The notes: generated by a model from the sequence alone, not told the origin. 64,000 bases of DNA from Sphaerodactylus townsendi (GCF_021028975.2 NC_059434.1:34100001-34164000); one strand, 5' to 3'; positions 1 to 60,220 are shown, counted from the stretch's first letter. Numbers and translations: made by a program.

Positions 1-54
1 GTTTGCTGGGAGCACTCTAACAGTAGCTCTTACAGCCCATGCTTTGGAGGCATG

Positions 55-110
55 AGGGACAGGAAGTTCCGGGTTAAACATGCAACGCCACGTCAAGCTT
101 TCCCGGTTAG
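55..110. promoter_or_regulatory. Candidate promoter motifs upstream of Myb gene A
   Basis: Paired ETS-like cores CAGGAAGTTCCGG and CRE/ATF-like CCACGTCA just upstream of ATG at 148. Motif presence only. Confidence 0.3.
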
Positions 111-147
111 CTCACTAGGCTGCCCTTCCATACTTTGCAAGGGTCAT

Positions 148-2506
148 ATGGCCTATCCCCTCACAAGCAATTCTATCACCCCCAGTAACAGTGAGCACTT
201 AATGGTCTATATGTCAGTCCTCTGAGGGCGTGAACTGGTCGGAAGAGGAGAGGTGGGAGGCTATGATTCGTCTGTGATCAGCAGGGAGTGGCGTCGTAAC
301 CACCAATTAGTGGGTAGCGGGCTCCCAACAGGAAAATATACCTCAGCTCCCAAAAGAGCCATGGCAAGTGAGGGGGGATTACAACAGGAGCCCCACTCAC
401 TCCAAAACAAGTGGAAAGCCGCCAAAAAAGAGTACCCTAAAGCTGAGAGCTGACCCGCGTGGAGGGCTCCAACCGTTGCCGCTTGGAGTCAAAGCACTAC
501 TCCCTCATGCGCGCCAGGCTCTACTGAAGGCTGGTGGGTCCCTGCGCAGACATCGGGAGAAATGAAGGGGGGTGAGTTTGGTACCTTTCCACAGCATGCT
601 CTTGCAGTGACAAACCAGTTTACTGGTTTCAAATGCACCTGCTAGCTTTAATCTGAGCACCACTGAGAACCAACCAATCCAGTGAGATTGTGAGTTTAGC
701 TTGGAAGGGATGCGTGGACTTCTACTTTAGGTGTTACAGAGCACTCTAAGGCAATGGGTCTGCTTTGAGCACAACCCATTAGAGGTGTGGACTGTGTGAA
801 CGAAAGGCAAATTGTAGGTAGCAAATGGAGCACTGTGCAGCCGTGGATTTTAGGAGGTTAACAGCCAGAGCTAGACCACTCCCTGGTCAGTGGTGCATAC
901 CCCCCCCCCCAACGCTGCGGCTAGCTGGTGATGTGAAACCCACTCATCAATTCAGGTTCCATGGAACAAGCTCCAAATGTAATTGTTGTGTTTTACTTCG
1001 GCCAGCTCCCAGTACTTAAAGGCTGTGTCTGAGTCCAACCAACGCCGCGTAGTCTCTTGAGGGGTGGGCAGAGTGAGAGGGGAATGTGATGCCCTTTGAG
1101 CATGCTGCAGTAGAGGAAGGGGGCCGGAGGGCACACCCCTTTCTCCTCTTCCCTTACCACCTCCCTAGTCATAAAATTAAAAGCTGGGTATGTGAGCACC
1201 CGCTTATCTCCTCTCCCATTACGTACATGCTCTCAGTCCGGGTCTTATGGTCTAGCTGCAAAGCCGCGATTAAAATCATGGTGGGAAGGAGCGCATTGTG
1301 ACGTGGAGTGTTTCCAGGCCCACTGCCTCTCCCGTTTGCATTGCCGCAAAGTTTACCCATCAACGCGTGCAGAAAGGTTAAGCACTCTTTAACCAACAAT
1401 GCGACGCTGAAGAGCGCCACTATATTCCGGCCCCACCTTGAGAAACTTTGATGTGTGGGAGTCCTAAGGTAAACTTTAAGAACTACAAACTTGAGAAAGT
1501 TAAGACCATAGGGGAACTTGTATCTCAGTTTGCCACGCCTACCTTGTATTCGATGGGAGCCCCACATGCTGGCCTCCCTGTTCAATGACAGCAGGGGCTC
1601 TGTTGAATGTGGGAGAGAGCGCACTCTTTAAAAAATTAGATGTATGTGGCTATCTGGAGCTTAAAGCCATGCATCCCCCCCCTATTCCCCTTCAGGAGCA
1701 GCTCATTCCCACCACCAGAAACCAAGGGGAGGAGAGGAGCGAGGGGGGCACCCAGGTGCAGCGCAGTGAAGATGAGGGGTAAGCCTACAGAGTGCCATGT
1801 TCTTTGGGAAGGAGGTGTTGCCGCTGGATGCCAACGTTGCTCCATGTTACTGAGAGTTGTGGTCATGCATCTCTCAAATGCTAACTGGCTCTGCAATCTC
1901 TCCATGTTTGTGCAAAAGGAAATGTCTAGGGGACACAGAGGGGAGGGCTCCTAACCCACTGCAGGGAAGCTCTGCCAACTTAGGAAACCACTTACTACTC
2001 CAGAAGTTGGCACTCAGACAGAGCCATCGCTGGATGCCAACTTTGCCAGAGCATGAAGAAAAAAACTGGGCGGGGGGGGGTTGTTTTAAAGCGGGCTTAG
2101 CGGCAGCAGAATTCTTCTGCATGGAAGCCCAGGGATGGCTTAAGTGGTACTGAAAGAGCTCCTGAAGCGAAGGGGGGGGGACACAAGCAGCAGGAACCAG
2201 GACCCAGCGCCTTGCATCATCTAAATTTTCTAATTGTGGTTATATCTTCCACACTCTCTTCAGACACAGGGATCTGGAGGCGCCCTTAGGCTGGCTGTGG
2301 TTGAGAAGTGGATGAACAGGGAGGGAAGGGGGTCACAGGAGGCTCCCTGGCAAAGCCGAGGAGGAGGGAGCTGCAGAGAAGTGCAGGCAAACCACATGGC
2401 TGGCGGCATCCAGCCAAACAAGCACCAAACTTCCCTAACCCATCTCCCAGCTGGCCCTCCAGTTGTCTTGAAGCTGTAAATGCATTGCTTAAATCATCAC
2501 AATAAA
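148..2506 (+). pseudogene. Myb/SANT-like DNA-binding (MSANTD/trihelix-type) gene A, spliced, frameshifted in this assembly
   Basis: 227-450 reads across frameshifts as GVNWSEEE..EAMIRL...QLVGS.LPTGK.Y....AMASEG.YNRS..LQNKWKAAKKEY.KAE. Candidate donors GTGAGT (~572) and GTAAGC (~1779), last-exon acceptor ~2266 with coiled-coil-like tail, AATAAA 2501-2506. Exon limits approximate. Confidence 0.7.
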
Positions 2507-2546
2507 GGTAAATTGTACTTTTCACAAATATGCTTGTGCATATGGT

Positions 2547-5500
2547 TTTATTATCAGCTTGTTGGTTACAGCATCTCTGCAAAGCAAGGAGGAGTTGTCT
2601 GCTTTCCATGACCCAGCTTCCTCTCTCCCTGGCAAACCAACCTGAGGAGGACAGGGAGATGTATAATCGCTTTATAAAACATATAAACAAAATTAAACTT
2701 CCTGATGCTTAAAACGCAGCATCACTAAATTTCCTATGCAAAAAAAACGTAGGGGGTCCCTGCCGTGGTGGTGGCAGAACCAGAGAAAACAGGGGTGGGT
2801 GGGTGCAGCTTTGCTGAGTTACATCTCTGTAAAGCAGAGGATTGTCTGCCTTCCATGACCATCCTCTCCTGGCAACCTACCAGAGGGGCGAGCCAGGCAC
2901 GCGTGTAGCCCCTTTTAAAATATTAAAACCAATTAACCTTTGATGCTTAAGCGACATCATCACTAGCCTGGCAAAAGCTGGGGTCTCTGCGTGAGTGAGG
3001 TGGCAGACAGAGAAAAAACAAGGGTGGGTGGGTCGCTGGTTGGTTGGCATCTCTGCAGAAAGCAGAGGATTGTCTGCTTTCCATGACCATCCTCTCCTGG
3101 CAACCTACCTCACAGGAGGCTCAGGGGCGACGTAGTAATACTTTTTTAAAATATTAAAACCAATCTAACCTCTGATGCTTAAAACGCACATCAATAGCCT
3201 ATGTCCAAGTAAAAGCAGGGGGGGGGGGGTTCTGGCCGTGAAATTGGTAAGGCAGACAGAGAAAACAAGGGGGGGTGGGTGGGTGGGTCGCTGGCTGGTT
3301 ACATCTCTGCAAAGCAGAGGGATTGTCTGCTTTCCATGACCATCCCTCTCCTGGCAACCTACCTGAGAGGGGGAGCAGGGCCATGTGTAGCCTGTTTTTA
3401 AAATATTAAACAAAATTTAACTTCTGATGCCTCAAACTTGCATTACGCTAAGCTAACCCATGTAATAGAAGGGGGGGGGCTTGCCCGCGTGGTGGTGGCA
3501 AGTGTGACAGGCAGAAATAACAGGGGAGAGTCCTCTACAGGTCCATTCTCCTGCTTTGGAGCTTCCCTCAAGCGCTTGTGCATTGGCTGCTGATTCTTGG
3601 CAAGCTAACCATTGAGTGCAGCACAGCTCGCGAAGAGGTCTCCCCAACCATCATCAGGTCCTCCACCTGTGATGGAAGAGGTACCGTGGCCGCCATTAAA
3701 TCCACACAGGACTCCAAGTCGCGGTGTCCCTCAGCCAGAAAGTGGGATAAGTCACCTCTGGGTCGCATCTCCAATGAGATTTACGGTGCAGCCGGGCCAG
3801 CAATTTCCACAAGTGGGCGAGAGCACTGCTGAAAGCCAGCTGGGGAGCAGGCAAAGGTTTGTGATGCGACCCGACTTGGGAGCAAGAGGCGTAATGAACC
3901 CCCCAGCACCTACCTGCCACCGAGGGAGCCCAGGCGGCTGCAGCAAAGCCGCCACAAGGGTCTGCATTAATGTCATTCCCCACTGTCGATGGCCAGCCCT
4001 CATGCACATGACAGCTCCCTGTTTTGCTCTCTTGGCAGCTGCTCTGCATGAATGACGCCACCTCCCTTTCCACGCCTATCCCTCGAAGCGCCTCTGCCTC
4101 TCCATTGCCTCGACCTCTCCCTGCTCCACCATGGTACCCATACCGTGAAAGTCAGCTGCAGCACTCCAACACGTCGCATTAACGCCGCCTGTCAGCAGTC
4201 ATTCTCTCCGCTCTGGGTGAGAGTCAGTTCCATCTCATGGGCAGGGGTGTGGAGCCTGTAAAGGAGGACATCGTTGTTGAAAGAAAAAGCAAAATTAATA
4301 GCTGTAGGTGATGGAAGGAACTTTTATGAATCCAATGTGTCATCTACCCTAGGCTCGCATGGAGGGAGACACGCACTTTCTTGTTATGAGCACATGAGCA
4401 GATCTGCATAGGGCATCCTAGGGTTTTGCAGATAAAGCTGAATCAGAACCCCTAGCATTCAAGCATTGAGAATCAAGCAGTGAGGGAGGCTCAGTAAGGC
4501 GCAGTAATGAGGCAGCTCACTTTTGCGGCATGCTGTCTTCTCTTGTCGTGCAATGGAGTGGTTGTCCCTATGCTCTCAGGAGTGCCTACCGCAAAAATGC
4601 AGCTGGTGTGGGGTTGGGGTTTGTGTTTTCAAAAGCGCTAACCTTCATTTCCAAATTCAGAACTCCCCAGCAATAGGGATGGTCAAGGACATCATTCATG
4701 TCACCAGAGGGTGTCTGCAAGAAGAGAGCTGCCATGAAGGAGAAAGAAACATGTAAGGGGCGCACTCATCACTTTTCTTCCTTTTGGACAAGCACTATAG
4801 CGCATTAAGGCCAGAGTGCTGAGCGTACGCAGGAGTATTTGGTCAGCACAATGTCGTTCCAGCAGCACCACCACCCTGGCAGGGCGCGATACTGCGCCCA
4901 GCACTAACATGCAATGGCTAAGAGGCATCCTGTTGTGGTTTCACCTCACATGCCCGCTAAGCCTGTGGAGTGGACCATTGCTTCCCTGCATCGCCTTCCT
5001 CCTGGCAGGAAAAACCATTGAATGTGCACTGTTGTTTTTAGGACTGGCAAAATTCCATCCCAAAGAACATTACTGTGCCCCTTAACCCGTCCTCACCCCT
5101 TTAGGCGCCGCACTGTGATGGAGGGATGTCGTTGGGAACACCACAAAGCATGGCCTTACACCAGCAGGCTAAATAACAGCCAATGAACTCTACCCACTCA
5201 TCTCGCGACATAGGGATCTTTCTCGCATTGGCATCGTCCTCCTGGAGAATTGCTGATTTCTGGGGGTGGGAAACTTCTGTTACGAAAAGCCAGCATTACA
5301 AGTTCAGTAGCTGCGTGCAGAACCCGTTGACCAAAGAGGAGAGAGGGGAGAATTGAGGATTCACCCTGCTAGTCCACTGCACTGTGCAACAACAGCGACA
5401 GCGAGGAATGCAAAGCATTTCCCTGCACATCCGGGCATCCATCTTTACATGAGAAATAGGACATGAGCTGGGACCACAGTTAAACCAACCTTATAGAAGT

Positions 5501-6150
5501 GAAGCGTGCAGAGTCTGGAGTGCCCCATCACAAGAGAGGCACAACAGAGCAAAGCGGCGCTGCATCCAAATGGTATCAGGCAGAAGTATAGGAAAACTCA
5601 CCCGGGATGTAGGGGATGGGGGGTGGGAAACCTGCAGGGTCAGTCTCGCGCCCATGAAAGTGCTCCTGCAAGTCTCTGCTCCCGAACGCTTTGGTGTGGA
5701 AGTCCCTCAGCGGCCCCGGCGTCTGGAGAAAGCCGTCACGACGCATCTCTGTCGCCTCGGAGCTGATCGCGGGGGGGGTTGATCGCCCCTGTCCCCCCCC
5801 CCCAACATCTGCTCGAGCTCCTCATGCAGAAGGGGCATCGTCCGGTGGCCCATTCCCCTGAGAAGTGTTGTTGTTATTGCTGGTGTATCCGGCTTAAAGA
5901 ATCCCTTTTCAAAGTCTTTTGCGCTTCGGCCCTGCACTCAGCGGGACGTCCTGTTGTCTTGCCCCGGCCCGGCATTTGATCTGCCACCCTCTCAAAACAT
6001 GCGTCCAAGTTTCGCGATGCGATTTAGGACTTCAGCTTTGAAGCTTGAACTTCCTCTTCCCCCACCGCAGCAATGCAGGTCCCTTAGCGTCTCCTCCGGG
6101 TCGCCATGAGAAATACGCCTCTACCTGACCCTTACCGAAAATGATGGCCG
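2547..6150 (-). pseudogene. Myb/SANT-like DNA-binding gene B, multi-exon, frameshifted in this assembly
   Basis: 6110-5790 on minus reads across frameshifts as SWRPEET.DL...WGEEEVQ...SHRNLD.FERVADQM...G.NR...ECRA..K.LKRDF......SG.G.RTMP..EELEQM. Donor GTGAGT 5596-5601; exon 4714-4521 (TTGCAG / GTGAGC); last exon from 4255 (TTTACAG) with R/E-rich helical segment; minus-strand AATAAA 2547-2552. Confidence 0.75.
2560..3520. repeat. Tandem array, 4 units of ~240-250 bp, inside the Harbinger-type element
   Basis: Unit core CATCTCTGCAAAGCAGAGGATTGTCTGCTTTCCATGACC...CCTGGCAACCTACC...TTTTAAAATATTAAA...CTGATGCTT recurs near 2572, 2822, 3048, 3302. Confidence 0.9.
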
Positions 6151-6891
6151 CGATTGTTTTGTATTGCTTCGAAGTTTCCCTCCTCCCATCCCGCTTAGCG
6201 AGAGACTCTTCGGAAAGCGTTGCGCTATACGCGCGTAACAGGGCAGGAAAGCGAAGCTGACGAAGTCACCGCGTGCTGAGGCAAAATATCACCGCGGCAA
6301 GCGGGGGCCACGAACCTCCCCACCGGTTCGATTCAGGCCTAAGGCAAAGCGCCTACGACCCGAAACGGTATGGGAGGGGGGGGGGAGGCGAAGTGAGATG
6401 CAAAAGGAACAAAAGGGAGTAATGTCGCGCTAGCGCAGCCAGGTAACGCCCTTCGCCGACTCCCATTGGATGGATCAAATCTCGGCCACACGCTACGTGA
6501 ACCCATGCGCCGTCACTTCGATCCACTTTTCGCTCCACATTTGTTTCAAGAACTAGGCACCACCCAAATTCTGGGGGGGAAACTGCGTTTTCCCCAAAAG
6601 TTGCACAGAGTATCGGCGACAGGAAAAATGTGGTCAAACGGCTGGAATAATGGCAATAAGCAGATCGGCACACATTTTGGCTTAAGTGTGTCGCGAACAG
6701 ATGTGTGGGATACTTAAGCATCTAATCTCTGCCACATTACCAGATCTGCAACAAACAGTGTGTGCGAAAACGCCCAGAGTGAAGAGCCACATATGGCTCC
6801 TAAGACATTGAACAGATACTCAAGTGTCTTATATTAAGGAAAGTTTAATTTAATTCAATGTTCAGATCTAATAACAAGAGTCTGAGTCTGA

Positions 6892-7111
6892 GATAGGTTT
6901 GCCAACCTCTGGATGGGGCCTGGAGATCTCTCAGAATTACAACTGATCTCCAGACTACAGAGATCAGTTACCCTGAAGAGAATGGTTATTTTGGAGGGTG
7001 GACTTTATGGCACTTTCCCTTGTTAAGGTCCCTCCCTTCCTCAAAATTCATTATTCCCTGGTTCTACTGACAATCCCCCTGGAAATTCCGAACCCAAAGA
7101 TGGCTACTCTA
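6892..7111. mobile_element. Degenerate hAT-like MITE (TAGGGTTGCCA-type termini)
   Basis: Starts TAGGTTTGCCAACC, ends TGGCTACTCTA (imperfect TIR). Confidence 0.6.
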
Positions 7112-7452
7112 AATGAATACAATGTTATGGAAAATTTTTTTTAAAACATAGACATAGAATTTGTTTGAAGGCCAAGAGACAATATTAAGGTTCAGTTTAG
7201 TCTATTGAGTATTGTAGACCTGAAAATGATCCCACATTTTTCCTCCATTTGGTGGATCATAAAATTGAATCCCCAACAACTTTTACCAAACTTGTGGGTC
7301 TTTAAAGAAGAGTCATCAGAAGCTAAACTGGTAATTTAATGCCTCTGCTGTAAAATCAATCAATCAAACAAACAAACAACAACAAAACAGCCCCCTGAGC
7401 CCCAGAGGTTATAATAGAGCCAAGGGCAGATTTAAATGTTAAAGGTCTACAT

Positions 7453-7740
7453 AAGAGGAGTTTGGATTTATATCCTCCCCCTTTGTTTCCTGTTTGTAAA
7501 GGGGCTTACAAACTCCTCTTCCTTCTCCCCACAACTGACTACTGGTGAGGTAGGTGGGACTGAGAGAGTTCTGAAGAACTGTGACTAGCCCAAGGTTACC
7601 CAGCAGGGATGTAGGAGTGTGGAAACAAATCTGGTTCACCAGATAAGAGTCCATTGCTGGTGTGAACGACTGGGGAATCAAACTCAGTTGTCCAGATTAG
7701 AGTCCATTTGCTTTTGACCACAACACCTTGCTTGCTCTCC
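7453..7740 (-). mobile_element. tRNA-derived SINE (Squam3-like)
   Basis: Reverse complement matches the SINE at 63061-63366 (GGATATAAATCCAAACTC tail, GGGCTAGTCACAGTTCTT core, B-box remnant). Confidence 0.75.
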
Positions 7741-9176
7741 AGGGCATATGTACTCAAGTGGTTTTTTTCCCTTTAAAAGTGATTTTTCCCTTTCTACTGG
7801 GGCAGCTTTGGATCTTGAAATGATCATGAAAAAGCCCCCCCCCTTTTTTTTTTTTTGCTTTTTGAGATTGTTAGATACAGCCTAAACTACCAATTTTGCA
7901 CAAGACTCACACCCTTCTGCCCTTGTGCAAAGAGAAGACTGGAATTCTTGGGATCATGAATATTCAGCACATTAATGAGAACAGAAATCTTCACTTCATG
8001 AAAATAACTTGGGAGTCTAATGGCAAAAGATTTCACAACCACAGCTCACTTCCTTGAATGCATCTCTAAGGTGCCCTAGACTTATGTTTTATTTTGTTAT
8101 TATAGACTAACAAGACTATTAACCTAGAATTAACTTCATGAATTAAATATTCAATATTTTTGTGGAAATGAAATCCCTACATGAATCAATGACAATATTC
8201 AAGTTGCTAGTTAGTTTTTTACAGTTAGTAAAAAAATATTTTATTGCTGAAATAGCATGTTGCCCTTCGGATTTGGACTGGTTTTTTTTTTTTAAGCAAC
8301 TAAGCCATTACAGAATCCTGTGAGTCCTCCATGCCATAGCGGGAACTGGAGTTTCAGGAACACTGGGCTCCCAACCTAATCAGGGAGAAGGCTCAAATGG
8401 GGTGTATGTTTAATTTTCTTTATTAATAGCCCATGTTTCTTGCCAAGTCTCAAGACAGATGATAAAATATCAATAGTGAAATCAAATAGCACAAACCAAC
8501 CAATGACCACCCTAATAGGACCAGTAATGCTGAATTAAGGAACAATGTGAACAACACATTATCTAAGTCAGGTAAATGATAAATAATACAGATAATTGAT
8601 TACTAGGGAAAGACAATGCACTGAAAGCAGGTCATACCTACGATAATCATTTCAGTGGACTATTCCATTATAAAGGTGCCTTCCTGGACTTTAATCGCTT
8701 TCTTAAAATGACCTCTTGAACATTTTGGTTTTGCACATTTCATGAAATTACAGAAGGTCAGAAGCCTGCCTGACTTTTTCAGGCATGCTTGCTTTCCTTT
8801 GGCATGCGGCTTGCCATTCACAACTGCCCACCCACCAATCCCTACGTTTGGCAAGGTGTTGGTGTATTTATTTTATTTATATCATGCTGCTCTTCATAGT
8901 GGGGACTCAAAGCAGCTTATTACATCATTCTTCCCTCTTTCATCTTATCTTGACAACAACTGCCCCATGAGTCTTGCTATATTCAGATATTTCAAGTGGC
9001 CTAAGTTTACCAGTAAATTTCCATGGCAGAGCAGGGATTCAAACCTAGTTTTTCCAGATCCTAGACTGACATTGATTTCTATACCATGAAAGTAGAACTA
9101 AATGGACATTTCAGGGCTGAACAGAAATTTCTGGGACTCAGGCTGTGAAAGTGTTCTTTTTCACCTGTATCACTTT

Positions 9177-9325
9177 GGGCACTTTTGCAGATGTAGAATA
9201 ATGCAGTTTCAGTTCACTTTCACAATTGTTTGCAAGTGGATTTTGCTATTTTGAACAGTAAAATCCAGCTGCAAAGTGCTTTGAAAGTGGATTGAATGCA
9301 TTATTCTACATGTGTGAAAGTGCCC
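9177..9325. mobile_element. Harbinger-type MITE
   Basis: TIRs GGGCACTTTTGCAGATGTAGAATAATGCA / TGCATTATTCTACATGTGTGAAAGTGCCC; 3-bp TSD TTT on both sides. Confidence 0.8.
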
Positions 9326-9879
9326 TTTGCCACTACTCAGTGTGTATCATAGGTGGGTTCCACACTGCATATTTACAATGAGTTGCATTAGTTATAAATG
9401 AATCCATTTTTCTTTTTCCATTTTGTGCAATGGTCTGGCAATAATGAATGTGTTACTGTATATCTATGAGTGCAATGGTGGTCATACTCGCTGCCATGGT
9501 GAGAAAACATGCTTGGGAGATCTGCATAGTGGTGGGTGGACAGAATCTTCCTGACATGGCAAATGGCAGCAGAAACAAAGTAAAAGGGTGGAAGGGAGGA
9601 GAAATTAGATAGCAACTGGAAAAATAAAGCATCTCCTACCTGTTATGTTCACACAAGAGTGCCTTCAACCCAGAATTTTGCTAAAAGATAGTTTAGTGAT
9701 TTTGAAAAAAAAAACAGGTTAGGAGTATAACAGGCTTAAGTCATTTTGAGGTTGAGACCTGTGTGAAGTTCTTCCCCAAAACATTATTTGAAATGAAGTG
9801 AAACCTTTAATGGCATTTAAAAAAATAATATACAATGGGTTTTTAAAAATATAAAAAATTAAAATCCTTGAATACAGTC

Positions 9880-10790
9880 ATTAAAAAATTAAAGATTTTG
9901 TTCAGGAAAAACATTCAGACAGCAATACACATAAATCTGGCCATAGGTTCAGGTACTGTGGCTGAATTACTATTTAGCAGAAACAAGGTTTTAGCAGGAT
10001 CTGCAATACTGTCTAGGCCAGTCAAGGGGAGCTTTAATTTTTTTTTGTGCAGAGTCATAAAAAAGGCAATGGTGAAGGGCATGATGGACAGTTTCCTCCA
10101 ATCTGATGGTGCAGCTACAGTTTCTGTCAAAGATTGCAAGATGATTCTTTCTGCTGGAAGGAATCACATTACATCTAGCCAGAGTATCAGCTCCTCGAAG
10201 TTTAGGGTCAGTTAGTAAATAAAGATAGCTGGCTGTCATGGTAATCCGAGGGAGGATTCCCAGATGAATAGGAGAGAAAAATGTATTCACTTTAGCCATC
10301 CATTTCTGTGATTCTTGTTTGAGAAGACTAGGTTTTATTGCATGGAATGTCTCCTTGGCAGTTAGCATAAGTTGACAGTCCAGAGGCAGATCCAGGTCTT
10401 GTAATTTAGCATTCAGATGAACCTACCAGTCTGTTAAATGAAGAAAGGAGAGGGCTTGAGAAATAAAACTAGGGTCCTTGTTTCTTTAGCAAATTTGTAG
10501 CCAGAACTTGAAGGTAAGACACCAGGCTTTGGTTTCCATCAAGTGCTAGCCTGCTTCCAGAGATAAAACAGCATAGGGCACTGAATGAGGAATTCCAAAA
10601 ATTCGACATAAAAATCCAGATTGAATTTGCTCAATTTTAATGTTACATGATTGAATCCATAAAAGGATGCCACAGAAAAGTTGGTGGCAGTTTTTAGAAT
10701 TAAAGATCTTTAAAACCGCTGTGATATATCCATATCCCTTGTAAAAAAAAGCGAAAGATGGCATTACTGGTGATTTTACTTGATGCTATC
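9880..10790 (-). mobile_element. LINE ORF2 3' fragment, RTE-X-like
   Basis: Post-RT segment KIEQIQSGFLCRIFGIPHSVPYAVLSLEAG*..ETKAW....KFWL, then ASYLY.LTDPKLR...TLARCNVIPS...RNCSC...EETVHHAL.HC.FY (CCHC-type C-terminal knuckle); stops and frameshifts. Confidence 0.75.
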
Positions 10791-10811: not shown

Positions 10812-11506
10812 TAGGGTTGGAGATTGAGACGTAAGAAATGCCAGATTCGGACTGATCTGGGCGATTTTGGGCATGTTCAGACAAAAATTGTCCAAATGTG
10901 TCCTGTCCAAATATGCACGAATCCAAATGCAAGGTATTTGGGATTTTTTTTAAAAAAAAATTGGAGTTTTTTTGCATTTCAGCCTGAAGGGAGTGCATTT
11001 TTAAAGCTAGTGGCACCAGAATTTCAGGGTACTATTCAAAGACTGTCCTGATTATATCAACCAAGTTTGGTGAAGTTTGGTTCAGGGGGGGCAAAGTTAT
11101 GGACTCCCAAAGGGTGTGCCCCATCCCCCATTGTTTCCAATGGGAGCTAACAGGAGATGGGGGCTACCCATTTGAGGGTCCATAACTTTGCCCCCCCTAA
11201 ACCTAACATCACCAAACAGATGACTGTTCTGTCTGGCATTTCCTTGCTTGCAAGCAAAGAAACTCCAAAGCAGGCGGGGGCAGGAAAGAACCAGGTTGTC
11301 CACTCCTGACCGGATCACTCCCCCCTGCTGCCTCCTGGATCCCCACAGCAGCCCCAGCCCTTGACTGCTCTGGCGTTTCCTTGCTTGCAAGCAAGGAAAT
11401 GCCAGAGCAGGCGGGGGCAGGGAAGAGCTGGGGCCACCCATGATGCCGGGCGCATGCCTGTGGGGTGCCCAGCAGGCTTCTGCCCACCGACCCACCACCA
11501 CCCACC
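10812..11506. mobile_element. Non-autonomous hAT-like element (TAGGGTTGG terminus), truncated by gap; internal ~140-bp repeats
   Basis: Starts TAGGGTTGG; shares ACCAAGTTTGGTG..GTTTGGTT..GGGG and CATAACTT motifs with 32990-33948; repeated palindrome TTCCTTGCTTGCAAGCAA(A/G)GAA near 11240 and 11377. Confidence 0.6.
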
Positions 11507-23267: not shown

Positions 23268-24070
23268 GGTCTGTTCCACCTAGCACAAAAAAGTCTGTGG
23301 GATGTCATTAAAAAAGGTGACTGCCTCTTTTCACTCTGCCTACCCAAAACATGATGCCCAGACAGCAAAGATGTCAGAGGGGGAGATTGTTTCCCACTCA
23401 ACCATTTTGCTCTCTGGTCAGTTTCACTCTCAGCTTGTGCTTGACAATTTGTGTGCAGCTGAAAGGACTCTCCCTGCTGCCATTTAATGAAGGTTTCACC
23501 AGATTGCTTGCTCTGCAGGCTCCAATCCTGGGTGCCTTTTCAGCCCCAAAAGTACATAGTTGTACTCAGCTGGTCCTGTTATTCTGGTAGTATATAGCTT
23601 TTCTTCTTCTTTTTTAAATTTTCAAGCCGCTATCTTTGTAGCTACGCAGAAACACATAAGAGAATCTTAGCCACACAAAAGATCGGTCTGCCGCCCATTA
23701 AAAAGCATTGGATTGACCTGCCCTCCATGAACTGACATTTTTTTTCTTACTACACAGCACCTGCAGAGCAAACATCCTAGGGCAACCTTCATCAAATGGT
23801 GACAAGGAGAATCCATTTGCATGCAAGATGTTTGGTGCAAGCTGAGGGTGAAACTGACCAGACATAAATGGTCATTTGGGAAATATAAGATGCCTCCTGA
23901 GCTCTGCATTTCACACAGCCAGAAAGGAGATGTTTTGCAAATGGTTTAGGAGGAAAAGGTGCACTTTGAAGCATTTTTTTTTAAAAAAGATGTATTGAGA
24001 AGAAATAAGAAAATTCCAGGGATATCTTAGGAAAAAGGATGTGTGAAGTGGTTTCCCAGGATGCTTTTTT
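23268..24070. mobile_element. Dispersed ~800-bp repeat with internal ~120-bp inverted arms, copy 1
   Basis: Arms ~23400-23520 and ~23755-23872 are reverse complements; homologous to 59451-60220. Confidence 0.75.
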
Positions 24071-24642: not shown

Positions 24643-24898
24643 AAGAACATAAGAAGGTAAGAAAGAGCCTGCTGGGTCAGACCAGAGTCCATCTAGTCCA
24701 GCACTCTGCTACTTGCAGTGGCTACCAGATGCCTTTGGGAGCTCACATGCAGGAGGTGAAAGCAATGGCCTTCTGCTGCTGCTGCAGCTCCCGAGCACCT
24801 GGTCTGCTAAGTCATTTGCAATCTCAGATCAAGGAGGATCAAGATTGGTAGCCATAATAGATTGACTTCTTTCCATAAATCTGTCCAAGCCCCTTTTA
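24643..24898 (-). mobile_element. CR1 LINE 3' end, copy 1
   Basis: AAGAACATAAG tail, GTCCATCTAGTCCAGC 3' motif, minus-strand ORF2 end KRGLDRFME. Confidence 0.85.
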
Positions 24899-24902
24899 GA
24901 AA

Positions 24903-25933
24903 GGGTCTCATTCGAGACAACGATGAAACCGCATACAGACGGGAGGTTGAACAACTAGCCTCGTGGTGCCACTGGAACAATCTAGAACTGAACACACTTA
25001 AAACCGTAGAAATGGTGGTAGATTTCAGGAGAAACCCTCCCATCCTACCTCCTCTCACAATACTAGACAACACAGTATCAACAGTAGAGACCTTTAAATT
25101 TCTAGGCTCCATCATATCTCATGACCTAAAATGGTCACCTAATATCAAAAATGTCATCAAAAAAGCACAACAAAGAATGTTCTTTCTGCGCCAACTCAGG
25201 AAGCTCAAACTGCCCAAGGAGCTGCTGATACAGTTCTACAGAGGAATCATTGAGTCTGTCATCTGCACCTCTATAACTGTGTGGTTTGGTTCTGCAACCC
25301 AACAAGATCGACACAGACTTCAGAGAATAATCACAACTGCAGAAAAAACAATTCCTTCTAACCTGCCTTCCATTGAGGGACCTGTATACTGCCGCGGGTC
25401 AAAAAAAGGGCTGTGAAAATATTACTGACCCCTCGCATCCTGGACATAAACTGTTTCAACTCTTACCCTCTAAACGTCGCTACAGAGCACTGCACACCAA
25501 GACAACTAGACATAAGAACAGTTTTTTCCCGAATGCCATCACTCTGTTAAACAAATAATTCCCTCGATAATGTTAAACTATTTATTATATACTTATTATA
25601 TAATTACTGCACTACTTTTTTCATCATTCCTATTACCCATCTCCTCCCACTTATGACTGTATGACTATAGCCTGTGCTGGCATTTCATTTTATTTTACAT
25701 TTTATTTTATTTTATTTTATGATTTTACATTTTATGTTTTCATTACTACTGATTGTTTCCTGATTGCTTACTAGACCTATATGACAATCATTAAGTGCTG
25801 TACCTTATGATTCTTGACAAATGTATTTTTCTTTTATGTACACTGAGAGCATATGCACCGGAGACAAATTCCTTGTGTGTCCAATCACACTTGGCCAATA
25901 AAGATTCTATTCTATTCTATTCTATTCTATTCT
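24903..25933 (+). mobile_element. Rex-Babar (Rex1-like) LINE, 5'-truncated, near-intact RT C-terminus
   Basis: GLIRDNDETAYRREVEQLASWC..NNLELNTLKTVEMVVDFRR...FKFLGS.IS.DLKW...KKAQQRMFFLRQLRK...FYRGIIESVICTSITVWFG...DPSHPGHKLFQLLPS.RRYR...KNSFFP.AITLLN; 3' UTR with AATAAA and (ATTCT)n tail. Confidence 0.92.
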
Positions 25934-27418: not shown

Positions 27419-28439
27419 GCATTTTCCTGATAGGAATCTTTATTTTGTTTTAAATTTTGGATATATTTTCAAACAATAACTGTCTCCCACTGGAATCTTA
27501 CCAATGTAGCAACTCCTCATAGCCTTCCTATTCTCAAAAGCGATTGAAATATGTTGTGTTTTGCACCTGTTCATGGACTTTAACCACTGAACCTTTACAA
27601 ACATCTCTTAAAATATATTATTCACATTAGTGTTTTTTTAACCTATACCTAGAAATATTAAGTCTTTTTAGCAGAATAACACTAATTGAGTTTGGTAAAT
27701 GGTACAGTCATTTTTAGTGTGCTCCTTAGTACAGTTCAATATCTACCTAACCTTTGTATAACAATAATTTAGACCTTTTTATATGTAGGTACTGCACAGG
27801 CAGTAAATCACCCAAGCTACCATCAGGCTGCCTAATGGAAGTTCCGCTAAGTCACTTGGCATAGTGCCACTAAAAGAAATCCTCATCCCTTTTTTCTCTC
27901 TCTTTCTTATTCTTTTTCAGAGATGAAAAAACCTTTCAAGAAATAATATTTGTTGTTACAGGAATTGTTGCTTCTTCCCTGAGTACATTGCAATAGCAAA
28001 TTCCTGTACTCGCTTGGTTTCTAACTGAAAAATATCTGAAAGAAATAGTTTCAGACTTGTAACATGAATTTCTCTTCTTAGAGGTCCACATTCATTGTCC
28101 ACTGCAAATCAAATATCTGGTTGAGTCTTTATGGAATAGGTTTGCTTCTACCTCAAAAAAATTTTATGTAGAAGAAGATGAACAGGCAATGGCTGACAGA
28201 TTGCTTCCTCTATAGTTCCATTAGCCATCCCTTTCATTTAAATACTGTGCACCAAGATCACATGCAGACACAGATCATTAATATAATTCTTTTCATATCA
28301 TCAAACATCCATGCCACTATAAAACGTTACATAACCCTCTCTCTTCCAGCGAGAACATCTTTAAACAACAGCAACCGAAACGGATGCGTGGTACACCATA
28401 TTGATGAAGAAATTGGGAAGTTGAACTCTACAGACTGAC

Positions 28440-29950
28440 TACTACCCCCAAATGCCCCGCCAACTGGCCTTGAGACCATCTCCTGGAACATTGCTGGGTG
28501 GGCAAATAAGACACTGAACTCCGAATTTACCCACTACCTCACCCAATTCCATATCATTCTATTACAGGAGACATGGATGACCTCCACAATTAACATTCAT
28601 GGTTACAAATCATTTACACTTCATGCTTCAACTTTAAAGAAGAGAGGCAGACCATCAGGAGGCTTAGCAACATTTATATCTCAAGGAATTGCCTCAACCG
28701 AACTTGATGTGTGTGAACCAATTGCACAGGCGATCAAAATACTGTACAATAACAAAAGCTTTATTCTAGTAAATGTATACTTCCCCCCAAGAAATGGGTC
28801 AGTAGCTAATGACAGTGATTGGAGAAGACTGTCAAATTTTATAGGTGACTTAGAAGCCAAGCATCCCAGTCAGGAGTTAGTAGTGGCGGGGATTTTAACG
28901 CCAGGGTAGGAAACGATCCCATCCAATTATGTTCCCAAGAAGATATAGATCAAGAACACCTTCAGCTACACTTTACACCATATGCAAGGAGATCTAAGGA
29001 TCTAAATTCCAACTCAAATGGGCTCCATTTAGCCAAATTGGCCCTCCTACACAACAAAATCTGGCTAAACGGACTGGACTAAGTTTCCAAATGCAGGCGA
29101 ATTTACTTTCATCTCTTCCCATGGGTGCAGCGTAATAGACTATATACTCGTGTCTCCACACTTGTTAGCCATTCTCCAAGCCTTTAGGATAGGGGATTCT
29201 ATGATTAGCGATCACCTTCCACTCATCCTCTCCCCGCAGAGACCTCTACTGCCAAAATTTCAAACTATAAGGCAATTAACACAACTCCCATAATAAGATG
29301 GTCAACCCAAACATGCAATAAAACCAAGGAAGCACTAAGCAACACCACCTGCAAGTTTCTAGGCTCCTCAGTAGTTATTGCAGATAATGTTAGCAGCAGT
29401 ATAGGAAATTATGAAAAACTTGTTTCATATTTGGTGTCCCTTTTAGGGGAACAAGAGGGAAGAAATCTCAAAGGCAGAGACTGGTTTGACGCTGAGTGCA
29501 AATATTTGAATCAACAGATTCGGATCACATTACAATAGATTTAGGGGCCTCCAAGGCCAAATTCCCGCCTCCTGAATTCGTTTAGTCTCCAAAACAGACT
29601 CTATGCAACCACATCAAAATAAAACGTCAAGAGTCAATAAGGCGCAACTGGGAGCAACTACTATATGCCACCCTATCCAATAACACAAAACAATTCTGGC
29701 AATTAACAAATAGGGGCATGTGTCAAAATCTCCCAATAGCTGCCGACATCACTCCTTCATTATGGCAGAAACACTACTCTGGAATTTTTTACTCCGACCA
29801 AGAGATTGACCGAAGCTCTAGCATGAGCCCAGCCGAGGATTTGCCTGAATGGGCCCCAGTTAACAGGCGAGAGGTTATTGAATTAATTCACCAACTAAAG
29901 TCTGGGAAAGCAGCTGGCCCTGATATCATTGTAGCAGAGATGTTAAAAAC
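28440..29950 (+). mobile_element. LINE ORF2 5' half (APE endonuclease to start of RT), RTE-X-like, decayed
   Basis: ISWNIAGW, ILLQETW, RGRPSGGLATFIS, LVNVYFPP, AGDFNAR (frameshift), RRSKD..NSNG, GEFTFISSHGCSVIDY, SDHLPL, DWFDAECK, LKSGKAAGPDII.AEMLK. Confidence 0.88.
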
Positions 29951-30787: not shown

Positions 30788-31309
30788 AAAGAGAGACTAG
30801 GGTTGGCGGTTCGGCCCCTCCCGAACGGCAAATCAGGCCGAGATCAGCCAGTTCGGAGGTCGGAGGGCCGAGGAGCCGAGCCACTGCCCCCCTCCTCACT
30901 AAACGCAATCCAGAAGTTTGGCCCTTCCCCGAGCCAGCGGCTTCTCCGGAGTCCAGCCTGGGGAAAATAAAATTTAACTCCTTCTGGCCCAGCTCAAAGC
31001 CTCCTGGCAAGCTTGCAGGACGAAGCGGAGCTTCAAGTAAGCTTGGGACGAGCAGCTTCAAGTAAAAAAAAACAAAAACAAACCCTACTCCGCCCATAGG
31101 CGCCGCTCCCCACCCACTCCTGCCACAAGTCCTACAAGCACCCACCCCACCCAGCCTCATTTCCCACCCAGCCCGGCCAAGACCCGAAGACTTGTGCAGC
31201 TCCTGGCAGGTGGCCCGGTGGGATGAGTGGGAGCTTCAAACTAAAAATAAAACACAGAATGGTCCCCACAAAGTTTCCCACCCAAAAGAGACCCCACTTA
31301 CCCACAGTG

Positions 31310-32180
31310 TCACTGGGCCTTTCCCCACTGCCGTAAGCCCAGCTGCCAGGGAGAGTAGCGGGGGTTCATCTCCCTCCCGGCAGGGGCGGCCACAGCCTGG
31401 CCGCCCGCCCGCTGCCGCTGGGCCTTTCCCCACTTACGTGAAGCCCGGCTGCCAGGAGAGTAGCGGGGTTCCTCCCTCCCTCCCACGGCAGAAGCGGCTA
31501 CAGCCCGCCCCCCGCTGCAGCTGGGCCTTTCCCCTGCAGTGGCCCCAGCTGCCAGGGAGAGTGGCGCGGGGTTCCTCCCTCCCATGGCAGGGGCAGCCTG
31601 ATACAGCAGCCCGCCTCCTGCCGCTGCCGCTGGGCCTTTCCCCCCCCCACTTACCGTAAGCCCAGCTGCCAGGGAGAGTGGCGGGGTTCCCCTCCCTCCC
31701 ACGGCAGGGGCTGACTGCAAGCGCAGCCGCCCCCCCCGCTGCGGCTGGGCCTGCCCACCCCGTAGAAGCCCAGCTGCCAGGGAGAGTAAGCGGGGGTTCC
31801 TCCCTCCCGGCAGGAAGCGGCCACAAGCGCCAGCCGCGCCGCTGCCCGCTGGGCAGCACCACTTACCCGTGGCTCGCGCTACTTGAGGGAGGCGGGGGTG
31901 CCTCTCCCTCCCACGGCAGGGGGCGGCCACAGCACAACCGCCCTGCATGCAGCTGGGCCTTTCCCCCACTTACCGTAGGCCCAGCGTTACTTGAGGGAGA
32001 GATGGCGCGAGGTTCCTCCTCCATCCCACGGCAGGAAGCCCACAGCACAGCCCGCCCGCCGCTGCCGCTGGGCCTTTCCCCCACTTACCGTGAAGCCCGG
32101 CGCTGCCAGGGAGGAAGTGGCGCTGGGGTTCCTCCCTCCCTCCCCGCGGCGGGGGGCGGCCCTGGCGCGGTCGCCCCACC
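31310..32180. repeat. GC-rich minisatellite, ~7 units of ~115-120 bp
   Basis: Unit GGGCCTTTCCCCACTTACCGTAAGCCCAGCTGCCAGGGAGAGT.GCGGGGTTCCTCCCTCCCACGGCAGGGG... repeated with many indels. Confidence 0.9.
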
Positions 32181-32564
32181 GCTGCGCTGTCGTGCCCCTC
32201 GGCAGCGGCATCCCAGGCGCTCTTCTGAACGGCGAGGCGACCCGCGCAGGCGCGGGGTCGTGTGGACCTGGACGCCTGGGATGCACAGCAGCTGAGCAGC
32301 GCGCGGCATAGAGGGATGGAAGGGAGTGGGGGAGAAAGCCCACTGTCACAGGCTTCTCCACTCCAGTGGAAGGCAGGACAGCACAGTAAGGCTGGAAGAA
32401 GTGCTGGGGGGGAAGAGCAAAGCAGAGAATCCACATCCACAATGTTAGAAATGTGGCAGAAACAACACTTTAACTGAAAAAATCAACTACTTTAACTGAA
32501 CAACTAACTAAAACTTTGAAATAAATTTATGTGTGAGATTCCACCTGCCTGGGAGTTTCTTACC

Positions 32565-32980
32565 ACAGTGCACTTAAAACATGGTTAAAAGCATGGATCC
32601 TCAAGGATCCGCATGGTTTTCATAGTCACCAAAATCACCACCACAACATGGCACAAGTCATAGACACATGTCTGAACAAAGCAGTCACACATCCCATGCT
32701 TCATGGCCCAACAGTGCAGCAAACATGGTTAAAAGCATGGATCCTCAAGGATCCGCATGGTTTTCTTGATCTTAAAATCACCACCCGCACATCATGGCAC
32801 AAGTCCTTGGGTACATGTCTGCACAAAGCAGTCACACATCCCACGCTTCCATGGCCCAACAGTGCCCCAAAACATGATCAAAAGAATGGATCCTCTGATC
32901 CTAATGATTTTTTCTCTTGGTCACCCAAAATCACACAAACATCACACAGTAGCACAAAATCTGTTTTAAAAGCAAGGTTC
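32565..32980. repeat. Tandem repeat, ~3 units of ~145 bp
   Basis: AAACATGGTTAAAAGCATGGATCCTCAAGGATCCGCATGGTTTTC at ~32577 and ~32721, diverged third unit ~32870. Confidence 0.8.
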
Positions 32981-34585
32981 CTCAAAGGATCCTTTGGCCC
33001 CCTCAACCAAACTGCACCAAACCCTAGGGGGGTATGATCATGAAAGTCTCCAGATGATACCCTGAAATTTTGGTAGTCTCTAGCTTCTAAAAAATGTATT
33101 GTCAAGGAAGGCTTTAAAAAAAATGGTTTTGCATTTTCCGTCAACCCACCTCCCTCGACATTGGGTGATAATGGACCACCTACCTGTTTGTGGGTCCATA
33201 ACTTGGAGCCCCCTAGAACCAAACTGCACCAAACAATATGGGGTGTATGATCAGAATAGCGTCTGGGAGACACCCTGAAAGGGATTTGGTGGATGATACC
33301 TTTTAAAAATGCGCCCTCTGCAGGCACCCCAGAATTCCCCATTGAAAGCAATTGAAAAAAATTCAATTGCAAACCACAGGAATCTTAGGCCAAAATCCCT
33401 GGGGTGCCTGTAGGGGGAGCATTTTAAGAAGGGTATCAACTTTATGAAAAATTAATAGGGATTGCTATCTTCAGATCATACTGTTCCTGATCCCACATGC
33501 ACCCTAAGTTTGGCACAGTTTGGTTCAGGGGCCCATGTTATGAACCCTCAAAAAAACTTCAACCCTATATTCCATTGGCTTCCATTGACAACAATGGAAT
33601 ATGTAGACTATCTTTGAGGAGTCCCACATAACTTGGGCCCCCCCTAGAACCAAACTGCACCAAACTTGGCAGGATTGCATGATCAGAACAGTATTCTGAA
33701 GATACCCTGAAAATTTTCATGCCAATATCTTCCAAAAAAATGCGCCCCCTTCTGCGAGGCCATAGAAACAGGGGAAAAAAAACATCAAAAAAAAAATAAA
33801 AGCAGAACCCGAGAGTCTCGAGAATTTGGGTGTATCCGAGCCCTGGCAGTCCCAGGATATGGGGGGGATCCTGACCCCATACATCCGAATCTGGACCTCG
33901 AGACTCCGAACCCCGGGGCCAAATTTTTTCCCATTTTACCAACCCCTAAGCTATATAGCTATATATATGCAAGCTAAAGGAGAGACCCATATAGCTATAT
34001 AGTTTTGCTTAGCATGCTTGCTTATAGCCTTAACACATATGGAATGTATGAGTTGCATCCTTATGCAAGTGAAAGTCAGACAACCTGAGTATATCAAGGT
34101 CATTTGACTACTCTGACATGCAGTGGCTTTCCAGGATCATAAGTAAATGTTCTTTCACATTGGCTGATTCCTGATGCCTATTTTAATTGGTGATGGTAAT
34201 GACTGAAGCTGGACCTTCTGCTTGCAAAGTGGATCCTCTACCACTGTGCCAGAGCCCCATCCCAACATTAGTATTCTTTGAGGGTTAACACCAGTAGTGG
34301 CTTGATTGCTACTTCTTGCTCCTGTTATGGAGCACTGACTTCTTCCACTAAAATTCTGAATGTATTCATAATATAAAAAGAATTTAAGTATGTGTACATT
34401 GTGTGTATATCTAGCAGCAATAGACACTAGATACAAGCAATTCATCACTAACACAGCTGGCTTTTGAAAATCAGAAAGGCATTCTGGCCACTGGTTAAAA
34501 AAATGCTGCACTAAATGGAAACTTAATCAGATCTAGTTATGTAGCTGTGATGGAGAGAAAGCATAGTAGAATGGTTTGACTAGGA

Positions 34586-37387: not shown

Positions 37388-40022
37388 TCTATATATATAT
37401 AAAGCAAACCGTGAGTTTGTTCCTGATGGTCTACCACAGGAACTGCTGGCCCAACTCCTCTGAAAATTCCCAGCCACTATAGCCTACCAGGTGAGCGTGT
37501 TTTAAGCCTCTCAGCTGACTCCGGCACCCCTCCTGAGCCACGAAAACCTCTCCTTAACAAAACCTGTGGCACCCCCTACTGGCTGGTCCGCCAGCGAATA
37601 CTCCGCCCACTACCCTGCCGACCCACCAATATCTCCTGCTGCCTATCCCAACGTGCCAGAAGAAGCCTCGCTGCCGGGTTCCAACTGCTGCCACGTCCAC
37701 TGTGCCTGGCCCGCAGACCACCCCCCGAGCGATCTCCCCCTCCTCCCAACACCATCTACTGCACATGCCCGCAACTGTCCTCAGATCATCACTGCCACTC
37801 CTAGCAGCCGCGCTGCCAACACCCCTTCTGCAGCTGCGCAAATGCGACCACACTTCGTCAGACACCACCCGGAACACAATGAGTGGCAGCAGCACTCTCC
37901 CCTGCCCCCCACTTACTTTTGCTCGCCAAACAGAATGCATAGCGATCACTGCACCGCCTGCCCTGCACAGCTTTCACACGCCCAGCCACCTACCCGCCTC
38001 ATTTGCGCCCCAGCAACTCCCACAGTGGACTTCGCTCTGCCCACTGAGCTCAACATTTTTCCCTACAAGGCACATACGGGGCTCCCTCACCCCACCAAAC
38101 CATCTCCCTTTGCAACACATACACACGTTTGCACGTGAGATGTCAAGTGTGGTTCCCCTCCTCACATGTAGATAACTTTCACGCTCTGTGCCTCACCCAC
38201 TACTACCACACAACACACTTACTCTCATACATATCCAGCTCATCCTCACACACCTCACTCTGCCCTCCCTCACATTCAACCACCACTTAACCACTTCTGC
38301 ACCCATATTCGCCACAGTTCTCTGCCTTCATTTGCTCATCTCTAACACCCACCCACTCTTCCAAGACACATACACCTCCTACTCACATCCTTCCCTACTA
38401 CCTACCTCACATTCCAACAACACATTCACACACCATCAAGCACACCCTGACTTTTTCATTCCTCCAATAACACGGCCAATTCACTCATTGTGCCACACAA
38501 ACAACTCTCCAACGACACCACCTCCTGCCTTCATCATTCCCTTCCACAAACCACACCACTACAACTTCCTTCTTCCACTAACATCACACTCTTTTCTGCT
38601 GTTGCCTACCCAACCAGCTTGGCTTCTGAGATTTCATTGCCATGGTTTTCAATAAAGACCAGAAACAGTTTAAAATGAAAGGGTTTTAAATTGAAAGCTG
38701 TGGTTTTCAGGAAACTAAAGGTGCACCAGCACTTTTCATTAGCTTCTTATATTTATAACTACAGTGTCTTCAATTTAGGATTTATAGTTTTTTCCTTGCT
38801 CAAAGGCAACCTTTCACAGACCAACTGGCCAAATTGCAAGCCAACTCCCGCATCTTTATTGCAAAATACCAACACGCCAATTTCACCTGAACACTGCGCT
38901 TTCTCTTTATACAAGCCGGCTGCCTCTCAAGTGTGCCTTTCTCTGGGGTACACTGGCTGAAGCACCTGTGCAAAAGTTACACTGCATGACTCACAAAACT
39001 ATTCGCCTTCGCTCTGACACAACCCCACTTACCAACATCCACGCTTACTCCCAGTCACAGGACTCTGCCCAGGCGAGCCTGGGTGTGTGTGTGGGTAGGA
39101 GTCTGGTGTCTGCCAACCCCGCCCCTCCAAAACACTTCCTCTGTGTGGACGTGCTCACATTGAACTCTCCAAAAGCCACCTCTAACAACTGTTCCATAGG
39201 TTCCCCACCACTGCTCTAAGGCACTGATGGCGAACTTCTTCGAGACCGAGTGCCCACATTCCAACCCAACACCCACTGATTTATTGCAAATTCCCATCAC
39301 AGCAATTTATCCTGAATACTGAGGTTACAGTTCAGAAAACCAGGTTGGCTCCGAGGCACGCATTACTCAAGAGTAAGCTTGGTAAACCAACTGTGACATA
39401 CTTTGAATGGCTGAGTCGTACCCTTAGGAGGGTTTACTCAGAAGCAACATCCATTGCCAGCAACCACTGCCTCAACAGGGTGGACCACCACAGACCTTGA
39501 AAACATTCCATGCTGGCCAATGAATCTAAGCCCTTCCTATCTAACCTCAGGAAGAACAACTCATGCTTCCAAATGACGTGCAATCTACCCTGGGACGATA
39601 TACAACAGCTTTTACTTTATCCTTCACCTATATCCTTCATACACAAGTAGATCAGCAGAGGATGGCTGTAAATCCACTACCGTGCAATTGCAAAACAGTT
39701 TCATCAAATTAGACAACCAGTGAGTTGTTCCATATTCACTTTGCTATCAACCCCATACAAGGCACACATCAACGTACAATACTGCAACTCTCTTAAACCA
39801 ATCCAACACCTTTGTAAGTACATGAATAAAGCCAGCAGCATATCAGTTTTTGTCATACACCCATACAGAAGTGTGAGGAATGCAGTCACACACATCAATG
39901 ACATAGCACAGTATCAGGCTGCACGTTTCCATGAGCACGTACTACTGGCCTCTGTAATTGCTACTGTTCCTTTCCCATTTCACCACAATAAGCCACAGCA
40001 ACGCGTGGCCAGGTACTGCTAG
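37388..40022 (+). mobile_element. Non-autonomous Helitron with RepHel remnants
   Basis: 5' A|TCTATATATATATAAAG; 3' hairpin GCCACAGCAACGCGTGGC then CTAG|T; no TSD. Remnants: PPQTLKT..ESKPFLSNLRKNNSCFQMT (39485-39578) and YPSYTSRSAEDG..DNQ*VVPYS.LLSTPYKAHINVQYCNSLKPIQHLCKYMNK..NDIAQYQAARF (39625-39930), matching Helitron Rep motifs. Confidence 0.92.
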
Positions 40023-51533: not shown

Positions 51534-51673
51534 GGTGGATTCCGCATGGGCCAAAAACAGTGGTGTGAAAATGGTATGAAAATGGTGTAAACCCTTGACA
51601 CCGTTTTAAACCATTTTACACCATTTTCGCACCATTTTCACACCACTGTTTTTTGGCCCATGCAGAATCTGCC
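51534..51673. mobile_element. Palindromic Harbinger-type MITE
   Basis: GGTGGATTCCGCATGGGCCAAAAACAGTGGTGTGAAAATGGT / ACCATTTTCACACCACTGTTTTTTGGCCCATGCAGAATCTGCC; flanks TCT/TTT. Confidence 0.75.
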
Positions 51674-59450: not shown

Positions 59451-60220
59451 GGTCTGTTCTGCAAAGCACAAAACAGATGTTCAGGGGACATCTTTAAAAG
59501 AGGTGGCTGCTGATTTGGTTCCAGTCAGCAAAGGTGTCAGAGGGGAAAAGAGGCTTTTTCATGCCCAACTGTTTTGCTCTCTGGTCAGTTTCACCATTTG
59601 CTTGAGTCCAACATTTTGTGTGCTGCTGAAGGGATTCTCCCTGCCTCTATTTGCTGAAGGCTGCCCCAGGATGTTTGCTCTGCAGACTGCAGGCTCTGTG
59701 TAATAAGAAAAAAACTGTCGGTTCGCGGAGGGCAGGTCAACCCAATGCTTTTCAATGGGTAGTAGAACCATCTTCCAAATAGCTAAGATTCTCTTATGTG
59801 TGTCTGCATAGCTACAATTTTTTAAAAGAAAAACTATATACTACCAGAATTGACAGGACCAGCTGAAAACAACTATGTACTTTTTGGGCTGAAATAGTAC
59901 CCAGTGTTGGAGTCAGCACAGCAACTGGGTCAACCTTCAGAAAAGGAAACAGGAAGAATCCATTCAGAAGCACATAAAATGTCAGGCACAAGCGAAGAGT
60001 AAACTGACGAGAGAGTGAAATGGTCAGGTGGGAAACATCAGACACGTTTGAGCTCTGCATTCTGCACAGCCACGAAGAGACGTCTTTTAGGCACTATAGA
60101 AAAAAGGTGCACTTCGAAGGATTAAAAAAACCCAACAACCTTGAACTGAAATAAGGCATACAGAGGATGTCTTGGGGGGGGGGGGGGGAAGCTGTGTGGA
60201 ATTCCTTCCCAAGATGCCTT
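59451..60220. mobile_element. Dispersed repeat with internal inverted arms, copy 2
   Basis: Same outer flanks as 23268-24070; arms ~59570-59690 and ~59915-60025. Confidence 0.75.

Follow-up and report, generated by a model that had tools for sequence, protein, structure and literature searches.

Two convergent Myb-like genes in one CpG-rich block

The stretch analysed here, 64,000 nucleotides of the Sphaerodactylus townsendi genome (GCF_021028975.2 NC_059434.1:34100001-34164000; 'the window'), opens with a CpG-rich block that, judged by its sequence, is probably a Harbinger transposon. The block carries two predicted genes, gene A on the plus strand and gene B on the minus strand, each with a Myb/SANT-like domain and each directed towards the middle (Table 1). 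The hexamers AATAAA at 2501–2506 (+) and 2547–2552 (−) are the sole ones on either strand of 1–6775; they face each other 40 nt apart, a geometry seen in 5 of 400 Markov simulations. An earlier note made from the DNA alone, which we call the sequence-only reading, had described tail-to-tail signals about 40 bp apart, and both positions and spacing are as claimed. It had also named internal terminal inverted repeats (TIRs) as the mark of two nested elements; none lies between genes A and B.

The two genes gave no blastn match to each other, nor their Myb regions a blastp match, and the motif set that identifies gene B does not select gene A. Because significant DNA or protein similarity is absent and the gene B motifs miss gene A, we take the two to be different Myb types and not a duplication. 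An inverted duplication was rejected on the same blastn and blastp results. Also rejected was homology between a supposed gene B exon at 5276–5193 and gene A exon 2: 20 exon pairs were compared, the match was reached in 6 of 300 shuffles, the splice sites of the supposed exon were weak and another pair was better.

The Myb region of gene B resembles, by eye, the Myb proteins of fish Harbingers (PMC9179366 Data S2). Six short motifs from these proteins served as its motif set. Five of the six form a chain in the right order and spacing, and no other site in the window (both strands, 128 kb) is as good; the score of this chain, 7, was not reached in any of 400 simulations, the best of which scored 5. 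The region runs through all three frames, with at least three frame switches and two stops within about 290 nt, and the sequence as given holds no clear in-frame ATG for gene B. Just upstream of the domain, position 6135 (−) is a fair splice donor (score 7.5).

For gene A the start codon is uncertain, with ATGs at 148, 202 and 211. Its Myb-like domain likewise switches frame and is not one open frame. When the natural open reading frame (ORF) 226–450 was submitted to the ESM Atlas, it scored 0.90 to Myb/SANT clusters (recognition 2769), and all of the ten best family matches were concordant. The motif set for this gene consisted of three generic motifs; two were matched, and the resulting score of 3 was equalled in none of 400 simulated blocks.

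Splice sites were ranked with a matrix of textbook frequencies, and the exon models are predictions from sequence. In gene A, donor 572 ranks first among 129 GT dinucleotides, and acceptors 1696 and 2264 hold ranks 1–2 of 212 AG. Gene B has its donor 5601 in third place among 206, while acceptors 4728 and 4255 hold ranks 6–7 of 289; the five acceptors ranked above them all lie inside the tandem repeat array. The motifs of both domains stand where the sequence-only reading had placed them, with neither domain an open frame. As for its GT-AG exons, most sites are present and several are top-ranked, the weak point being the third exon of gene A, which lacks a good donor. On this indirect evidence, the second gene with a Myb/SANT/trihelix domain that is expected of PIF/Harbinger (PHIS) elements would be present twice rather than once.

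Table 1. Features of the block and its right flank
Feature	Position	Strand	Basis or remarks
CpG-rich, GC-rich block, visible right part of the putative element	1–6775		CpG count, GC bins, change-point
Gene A exon with Myb/SANT-like domain, several frames	227–571	+	Helix-1 W 236, loop motif 380, helix-3 motif 406; donor 572
Gene A predicted exon 2	1696–1778	+	Acceptor 1/212 AG; donor 1779 joint third of 129 GT
Gene A possible exon 3 (weak)	1965–2080	+	Acceptor rank 8/212; around 2080 a good donor is missing
Gene A predicted last exon, AATAAA 2501–2506 at its end	2264–2506	+	Acceptor rank 2/212
Gene B poly(A) signal	2547–2552	−	Sole minus-strand AATAAA in the block
Four tandem ~240-bp repeats in predicted gene B 3' untranslated region	2571–3540		73–77% identity between units
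Tail exon(s) predicted for gene B, with an approximate coding end	3600–4255	−	Acceptor 4255; donor 3913, from which a further intron is possible
Gene B predicted internal exon	4521–4728	−	Splice ranking; acceptor 4728 or 4714, donor 4520
Gene B exon with Myb/SANT-like domain, fish Harbinger-3_OL/1_ON/7_DR type	5602–6110	−	W 6106; motifs 6065, 5996, 5837, 5820; donor 5601
CpG-dense stretch adjoining the terminus, upstream of gene B; candidate promoter	6001–6775	−	21, 24 and 11 CpG per 250 nt
Candidate right TIR, GGGC type	6762–6775	−	Unique 14-mer, likeness to a miniature element, CpG change-point
AGA at the right flank, candidate half of a 3-bp target duplication (CAG 6775–6777 for an end at 6774)	6776–6778	+	Sequence

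Limits of the block

Composition is uniform across the block: GC content is about 0.52 over 1–6775 and stays within 0.41–0.60 in every 300-nt bin. The block holds 226 CpG (33.4/kb), against nine in 6776–10000 (2.8/kb) and 10/kb in the remaining window, and the introns of gene A are as CpG-rich as the rest of it, unlike host DNA. In 6001–7000 the observed/expected CpG ratio is 0.91. A CpG change-point computed without the terminus motif falls at 6771 (range 6771–6819) and coincides with the proposed terminus at 6775. This terminus, GGGCGTTTTCGCAC (6775–6762, −), has a single exact match within the whole window. Four further sites match the 14 nt with three mismatches, a number within chance; one of them is the end of a MITE (miniature inverted-repeat transposable element) at 9177–9325, to whose arms the terminus is identical at 10/14 and 11/14 positions. 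Because the change-point meets the terminus and the terminus resembles the MITE arms, a right end at 6775 is credible, and the GGGC-type terminus of the sequence-only reading stands on this side.

The MITE itself is an independent inverted-repeat element of 149 bp with GGGC-starting ends and TTT at both flanks. Since its ends resemble the 6775 terminus, it may have been moved by a related Harbinger.

TIRs of PIF/Harbinger elements usually begin with A or G, and the target duplication of the PIF/Harbinger group is a 3-bp TWA; the NuwaI group has a CWG duplication and the NuwaII group a C|TNA|G target (PMC4482050). The end at 6775 begins with G. An end at 6774 would give the flank CAG, comparable to the CWG of NuwaI. 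We favour 6775, because the flanks of the MITE agree only for a GGGC end (TTT/TTT, against TTG/CTT). The NuwaII target does not fit the flank AGA-G after 6775, where a read error is possible.

On the left the block continues to base 1 without a host-like stretch. The sequence-only reading had closed it by a TIR and begun it at 148; this position is an ATG and no boundary. No second or left TIR was found in 1–6775, the best plus-strand match in 1–6700 being 16/28 against 14–18 in shuffles, and no long inverted pair exists in 1–7000. An inner TIR candidate (5027–5050/6737–6760; 71% over 24 nt among 306 pairs) was discarded, as it has no GGGC end. Only six CpG lie in 1–250, compared with 21–24 per 250 nt upstream of gene B, which suggests that the promoter of gene A and the left end, with its TIR, are farther out and not adjacent.

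Searches for a transposase and for relatives

The Pfam scan covered 123 of the 125 stop-to-stop pieces of at least 38 residues, the other two being pieces that span the terminus. No transposase match (DDE_Tnp_4) was found in these pieces of 1–6775. Six motifs of fish transposases gave no hit in 1–6775 at up to one mismatch and eight at up to two, compared with 10.6 in 30 shuffles; this search lacked a positive control and loses power through sequence errors. The idea that the introns hold a transposase remnant was dropped, motif matches being no more numerous than in shuffles. The space in 1–6775 where a transposase might lie is occupied by genes A and B. A second copy of the block is absent from the 64-kb window.

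A PDB sequence search returned one irrelevant match (E 1.3) and Rfam none. Gene A had 30 and 593 pattern matches in viral and metagenome contigs, respectively, none of which was confirmed, and a 20-nt terminus pattern had no match in metagenomes.

Tandem repeats and the origin of the frame breaks

The 2571–3540 array goes unmentioned in the sequence-only reading. Indels and substitutions stand at 32:53 between its units, compared with 20:107 in five dispersed repeat pairs of the window (Fisher P = 0.0005); the transition:transversion counts are 23:30 and 66:41 (P = 0.04). A second tandem array of the window has an equally high share of indels. Slippage could therefore explain the indel excess, and for this reason the units were set aside as proof of read errors. 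CpG is retained at 33/kb in the block despite the shattered frames, which points to a young element. The frame breaks are probably uncorrected read errors.

On the minus strand, units of the 2571–3540 array have strong splice-like sites, including a combined acceptor–donor at 3362; these could allow alternative 3' splicing of gene B, or be due to chance. The second array (31313–32144) is GC-rich, has about seven units of 105–117 bp and lies inside another CpG-rich repeat (~30800–33700). The region 37500–40000 is C/A-rich and strongly strand-biased, with GC skew down to −0.49, and resembles an unpolished single long read. In the dispersed pair 30492–30755/49137–49398, 258 of 264 columns are identical, as in a young insertion or a well-polished repeat.

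Remainder of the window

The window is vertebrate-type DNA with remnants of long interspersed nuclear elements (LINEs) and many short repeats. Pfam matches to Exo_endo_phos (28439–28906, +, E 2.8e-6) and ALKBH8_N (24811–25413, +, E 3.6e-16) are of a kind we take to be typical of LINE remnants. Five further palindromic or inverted-repeat elements (51548–51658, 53886–54109, 23413–23862, 59580–59924 and 11065–11422) are probably non-autonomous DNA transposons.

Discussion

We favour the explanation that the block is the right part of one young Harbinger-type transposon from a three-gene family, whose transposase would lie left of the window or have been deleted in this copy; we regard this as close to an even call. 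A three-gene family is preferred because an element with two Myb genes and no transposase is most simply derived by deletion from a three-gene parent. Both genes would be spliced and transcribed towards the middle, with transcription of gene B beginning in the CpG island next to the right TIR. Several fish Harbinger families have ordinary partner proteins that gene B resembles, and it may be the canonical helper, which would bind the element ends and carry the transposase into the nucleus. Element-end binding and nuclear import of the transposase are the functions of the Harbinger Myb partner as summarised in PMC9179366 and PMC13668399. Gene A would be an accessory DNA-binding factor of a different Myb type, most likely acting in target choice or in sustained expression of the element. 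Most frameshifts would be uncorrected long-read errors in an unpolished repeat rather than true decay.

A number of results weigh against this explanation. The motifs for both genes were picked after inspection of the sequence, and the simulation rates are optimistic; for gene A, only two of the three motifs were matched. Its Atlas value of 0.90 is borderline, being reached by 4–10% of shuffles, and its shared-feature count of 163 is below the 170 typical for true family matches. The Atlas found unnamed clusters only (0.88), and no Myb match, for an ORF in a different frame over gene B. Pfam yielded no Myb match (PF13837/PF12776, Myb_DNA-bind_4/_3) in the 123 pieces and seven stop-read-through frames, with low power on such short fragments; no model scores either domain because both are scattered over several frames. 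Phmmer with the best frame of gene B had no match among 1.84 billion proteins, and word-based protein searches with three natural ORFs gave 25, 21 and 135 candidates, all of them above E = 10. The second tandem array is as indel-rich (93:92) as that of gene B. The right flank AGA is not the canonical TWA. No transposase, left TIR, target site duplication, RNA or second copy was observed, and the element's left part would lie beyond the window. A role of gene A in targeting or anti-silencing is speculative. The sequence-only reading had offered missing hidden Markov model (HMM) support for the domains as grounds for abandoning it. Taken literally, the check returned no match for either domain, in a test that has little power on fragments. 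The best reading is still a single block of Harbinger type in which two Myb-like genes converge, given the absence of an internal TIR, the uniform composition and the abutting poly(A) signals.

The same layout could have arisen without any three-gene family, by recombination between the 3' ends of two ordinary families of two-gene Harbingers, the product being a transposase-less Myb+Myb element that was moved in trans or was dead on arrival. Had the parent been a two-gene element with convergent genes, gene A would occupy the position of its transposase. The 6.8 kb without a transposase fit such an origin, as do the single-ORF Myb-only derivatives that are common elsewhere (452 in Laticauda colubrina, PMC8437027), the MADF-only copies in C. 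inopinata (PMC13668399) and the rare inter-family recombination proposed in PMC9179366. It requires, however, that the crossover left the two poly(A) signals at a distance of 40 nt, and the region upstream of gene A is not CpG-dense, unlike a terminal promoter; we judge this origin unlikely, if a serious contender. Quite improbable, in our view, is that gene A lies outside the element ending at 6775, as part of an adjacent or host element or as a domesticated host gene, and that a Myb-only element with gene B was inserted at its 3' end. The left end is unseen, no sequence common to A and B is detectable and an error-rich TIR might escape detection; yet no site resembling a TIR lies between the genes or around them, the signals are just 40 nt apart, and gene A has the CpG-rich introns of the block, unlike host DNA, and broken frames like those of gene B.

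The two remaining explanations concern the data rather than the element. Noisy reads of two Harbinger families may have been joined near the tandem array: the block looks unpolished, 37500–40000 resembles a raw read, and the layout is known from one copy. The junction between A and B (2506–2547) is nevertheless outside the array, which starts at 2571, and a mis-join gives no reason for facing poly(A) signals (5/400), so that we give an assembly artefact little credence. Slightly less credible still is the idea that one region alone is a real Myb gene and the other is over-read from frameshifted noise, the block being an ordinary decayed fragment of a Myb-only Harbinger. The failure of Pfam, phmmer and word searches and the design of the motif tests after inspection speak for it. 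Against this, gene A has two independent signals (the Atlas, which was untuned, and the motif test), in gene B five of six motifs keep their order and spacing, at the top site over both strands (128 kb), and after each region come top-ranked splice sites and then an AATAAA.

Known Harbingers follow the rule of two genes per element (PMC4482050, PMC9179366). The motifs found in gene B, with their order and spacing, are those of the Myb proteins of fish Harbinger-3_OL, -1_ON, -7_DR, -5_DR and -2_NF (PMC9179366). These elements have one transposase and one Myb gene, whereas here a second, different Myb gene faces gene B and no transposase is visible. Among squamate Harbingers, the solo-ORF variants of Harbinger-Snek in Laticauda are multi-copy Myb-only derivatives of a standard two-gene parent (PMC8437027); they have one ORF, in contrast to the two Myb genes of the present block. 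Harbinger-1M_cIno of Caenorhabditis inopinata also has a DNA-binding gene and no transposase, and it is mobile, with supply in trans proposed (PMC13668399); it measures about 1.6 kb and has one MADF gene, compared with more than 6.8 kb and two predicted spliced Myb-like genes here. Precedents for an extra gene, with a proposed anti-silencing role, are the three-gene TET+ PHISTA elements of rust fungi and the HarbingerS elements of Phytophthora with a SET gene (PMC12730594). Their extra genes encode enzymes (TET/JBP, SET), the third proteins of PHISTA have no Myb/SANT domain, and a second Myb is not among the genes described in the accessible text.

The domesticated genes MSANTD1-4 and NAIF1 share with the predicted genes an organization in three to four exons and an N-terminal Myb-like domain (PMC9392472). 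They are single-copy, intact and syntenic, whereas the block has a TIR-like end, a transposon-like CpG content and broken frames, and so does not look like a domesticated gene of the MSANTD/NAIF1 type. A two-Myb Harbinger was not found in the literature searched: the accessible parts of PMC5741667, PMC9710019, PMC7998251, PMC11872487, PMC4470032 and PMC3787270 hold nothing on this layout, and PMC4255032 does not mention Harbinger. Smith et al. (2012), the coelacanth supplement of PMC3787270 and the Repbase reports were outside this scope and may already describe it. Myb-only and three-gene Harbingers have already been published, and the two-Myb arrangement, seen in one truncated copy, is an unproven variant.

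Should the block prove to be a recombinant that arose once, or a join made in assembly, it would have little significance. Taken a step further, our favoured explanation would mean a recently active lizard Harbinger family with three proteins: besides a transposase there would be two Myb/SANT proteins, unrelated to each other and spliced, of which one binds the element ends and the other is dedicated to targeting or anti-silencing; this fuller version we offer as tentative and, on balance, doubtful. Harbinger transposition is described as a two-protein process, in which the Myb partner varies greatly and has often been domesticated, for reasons that are open. An element with two different Myb genes would permit a direct test of whether end binding, nuclear import, target choice and anti-silencing are separable functions, and it would warn that in co-phylogenies the pairing of transposase and Myb may not always be one to one. 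If the three-protein family is real, the two-gene rule of the superfamily would be broken in vertebrates, and a second pool of Myb genes would be available for host domestication.

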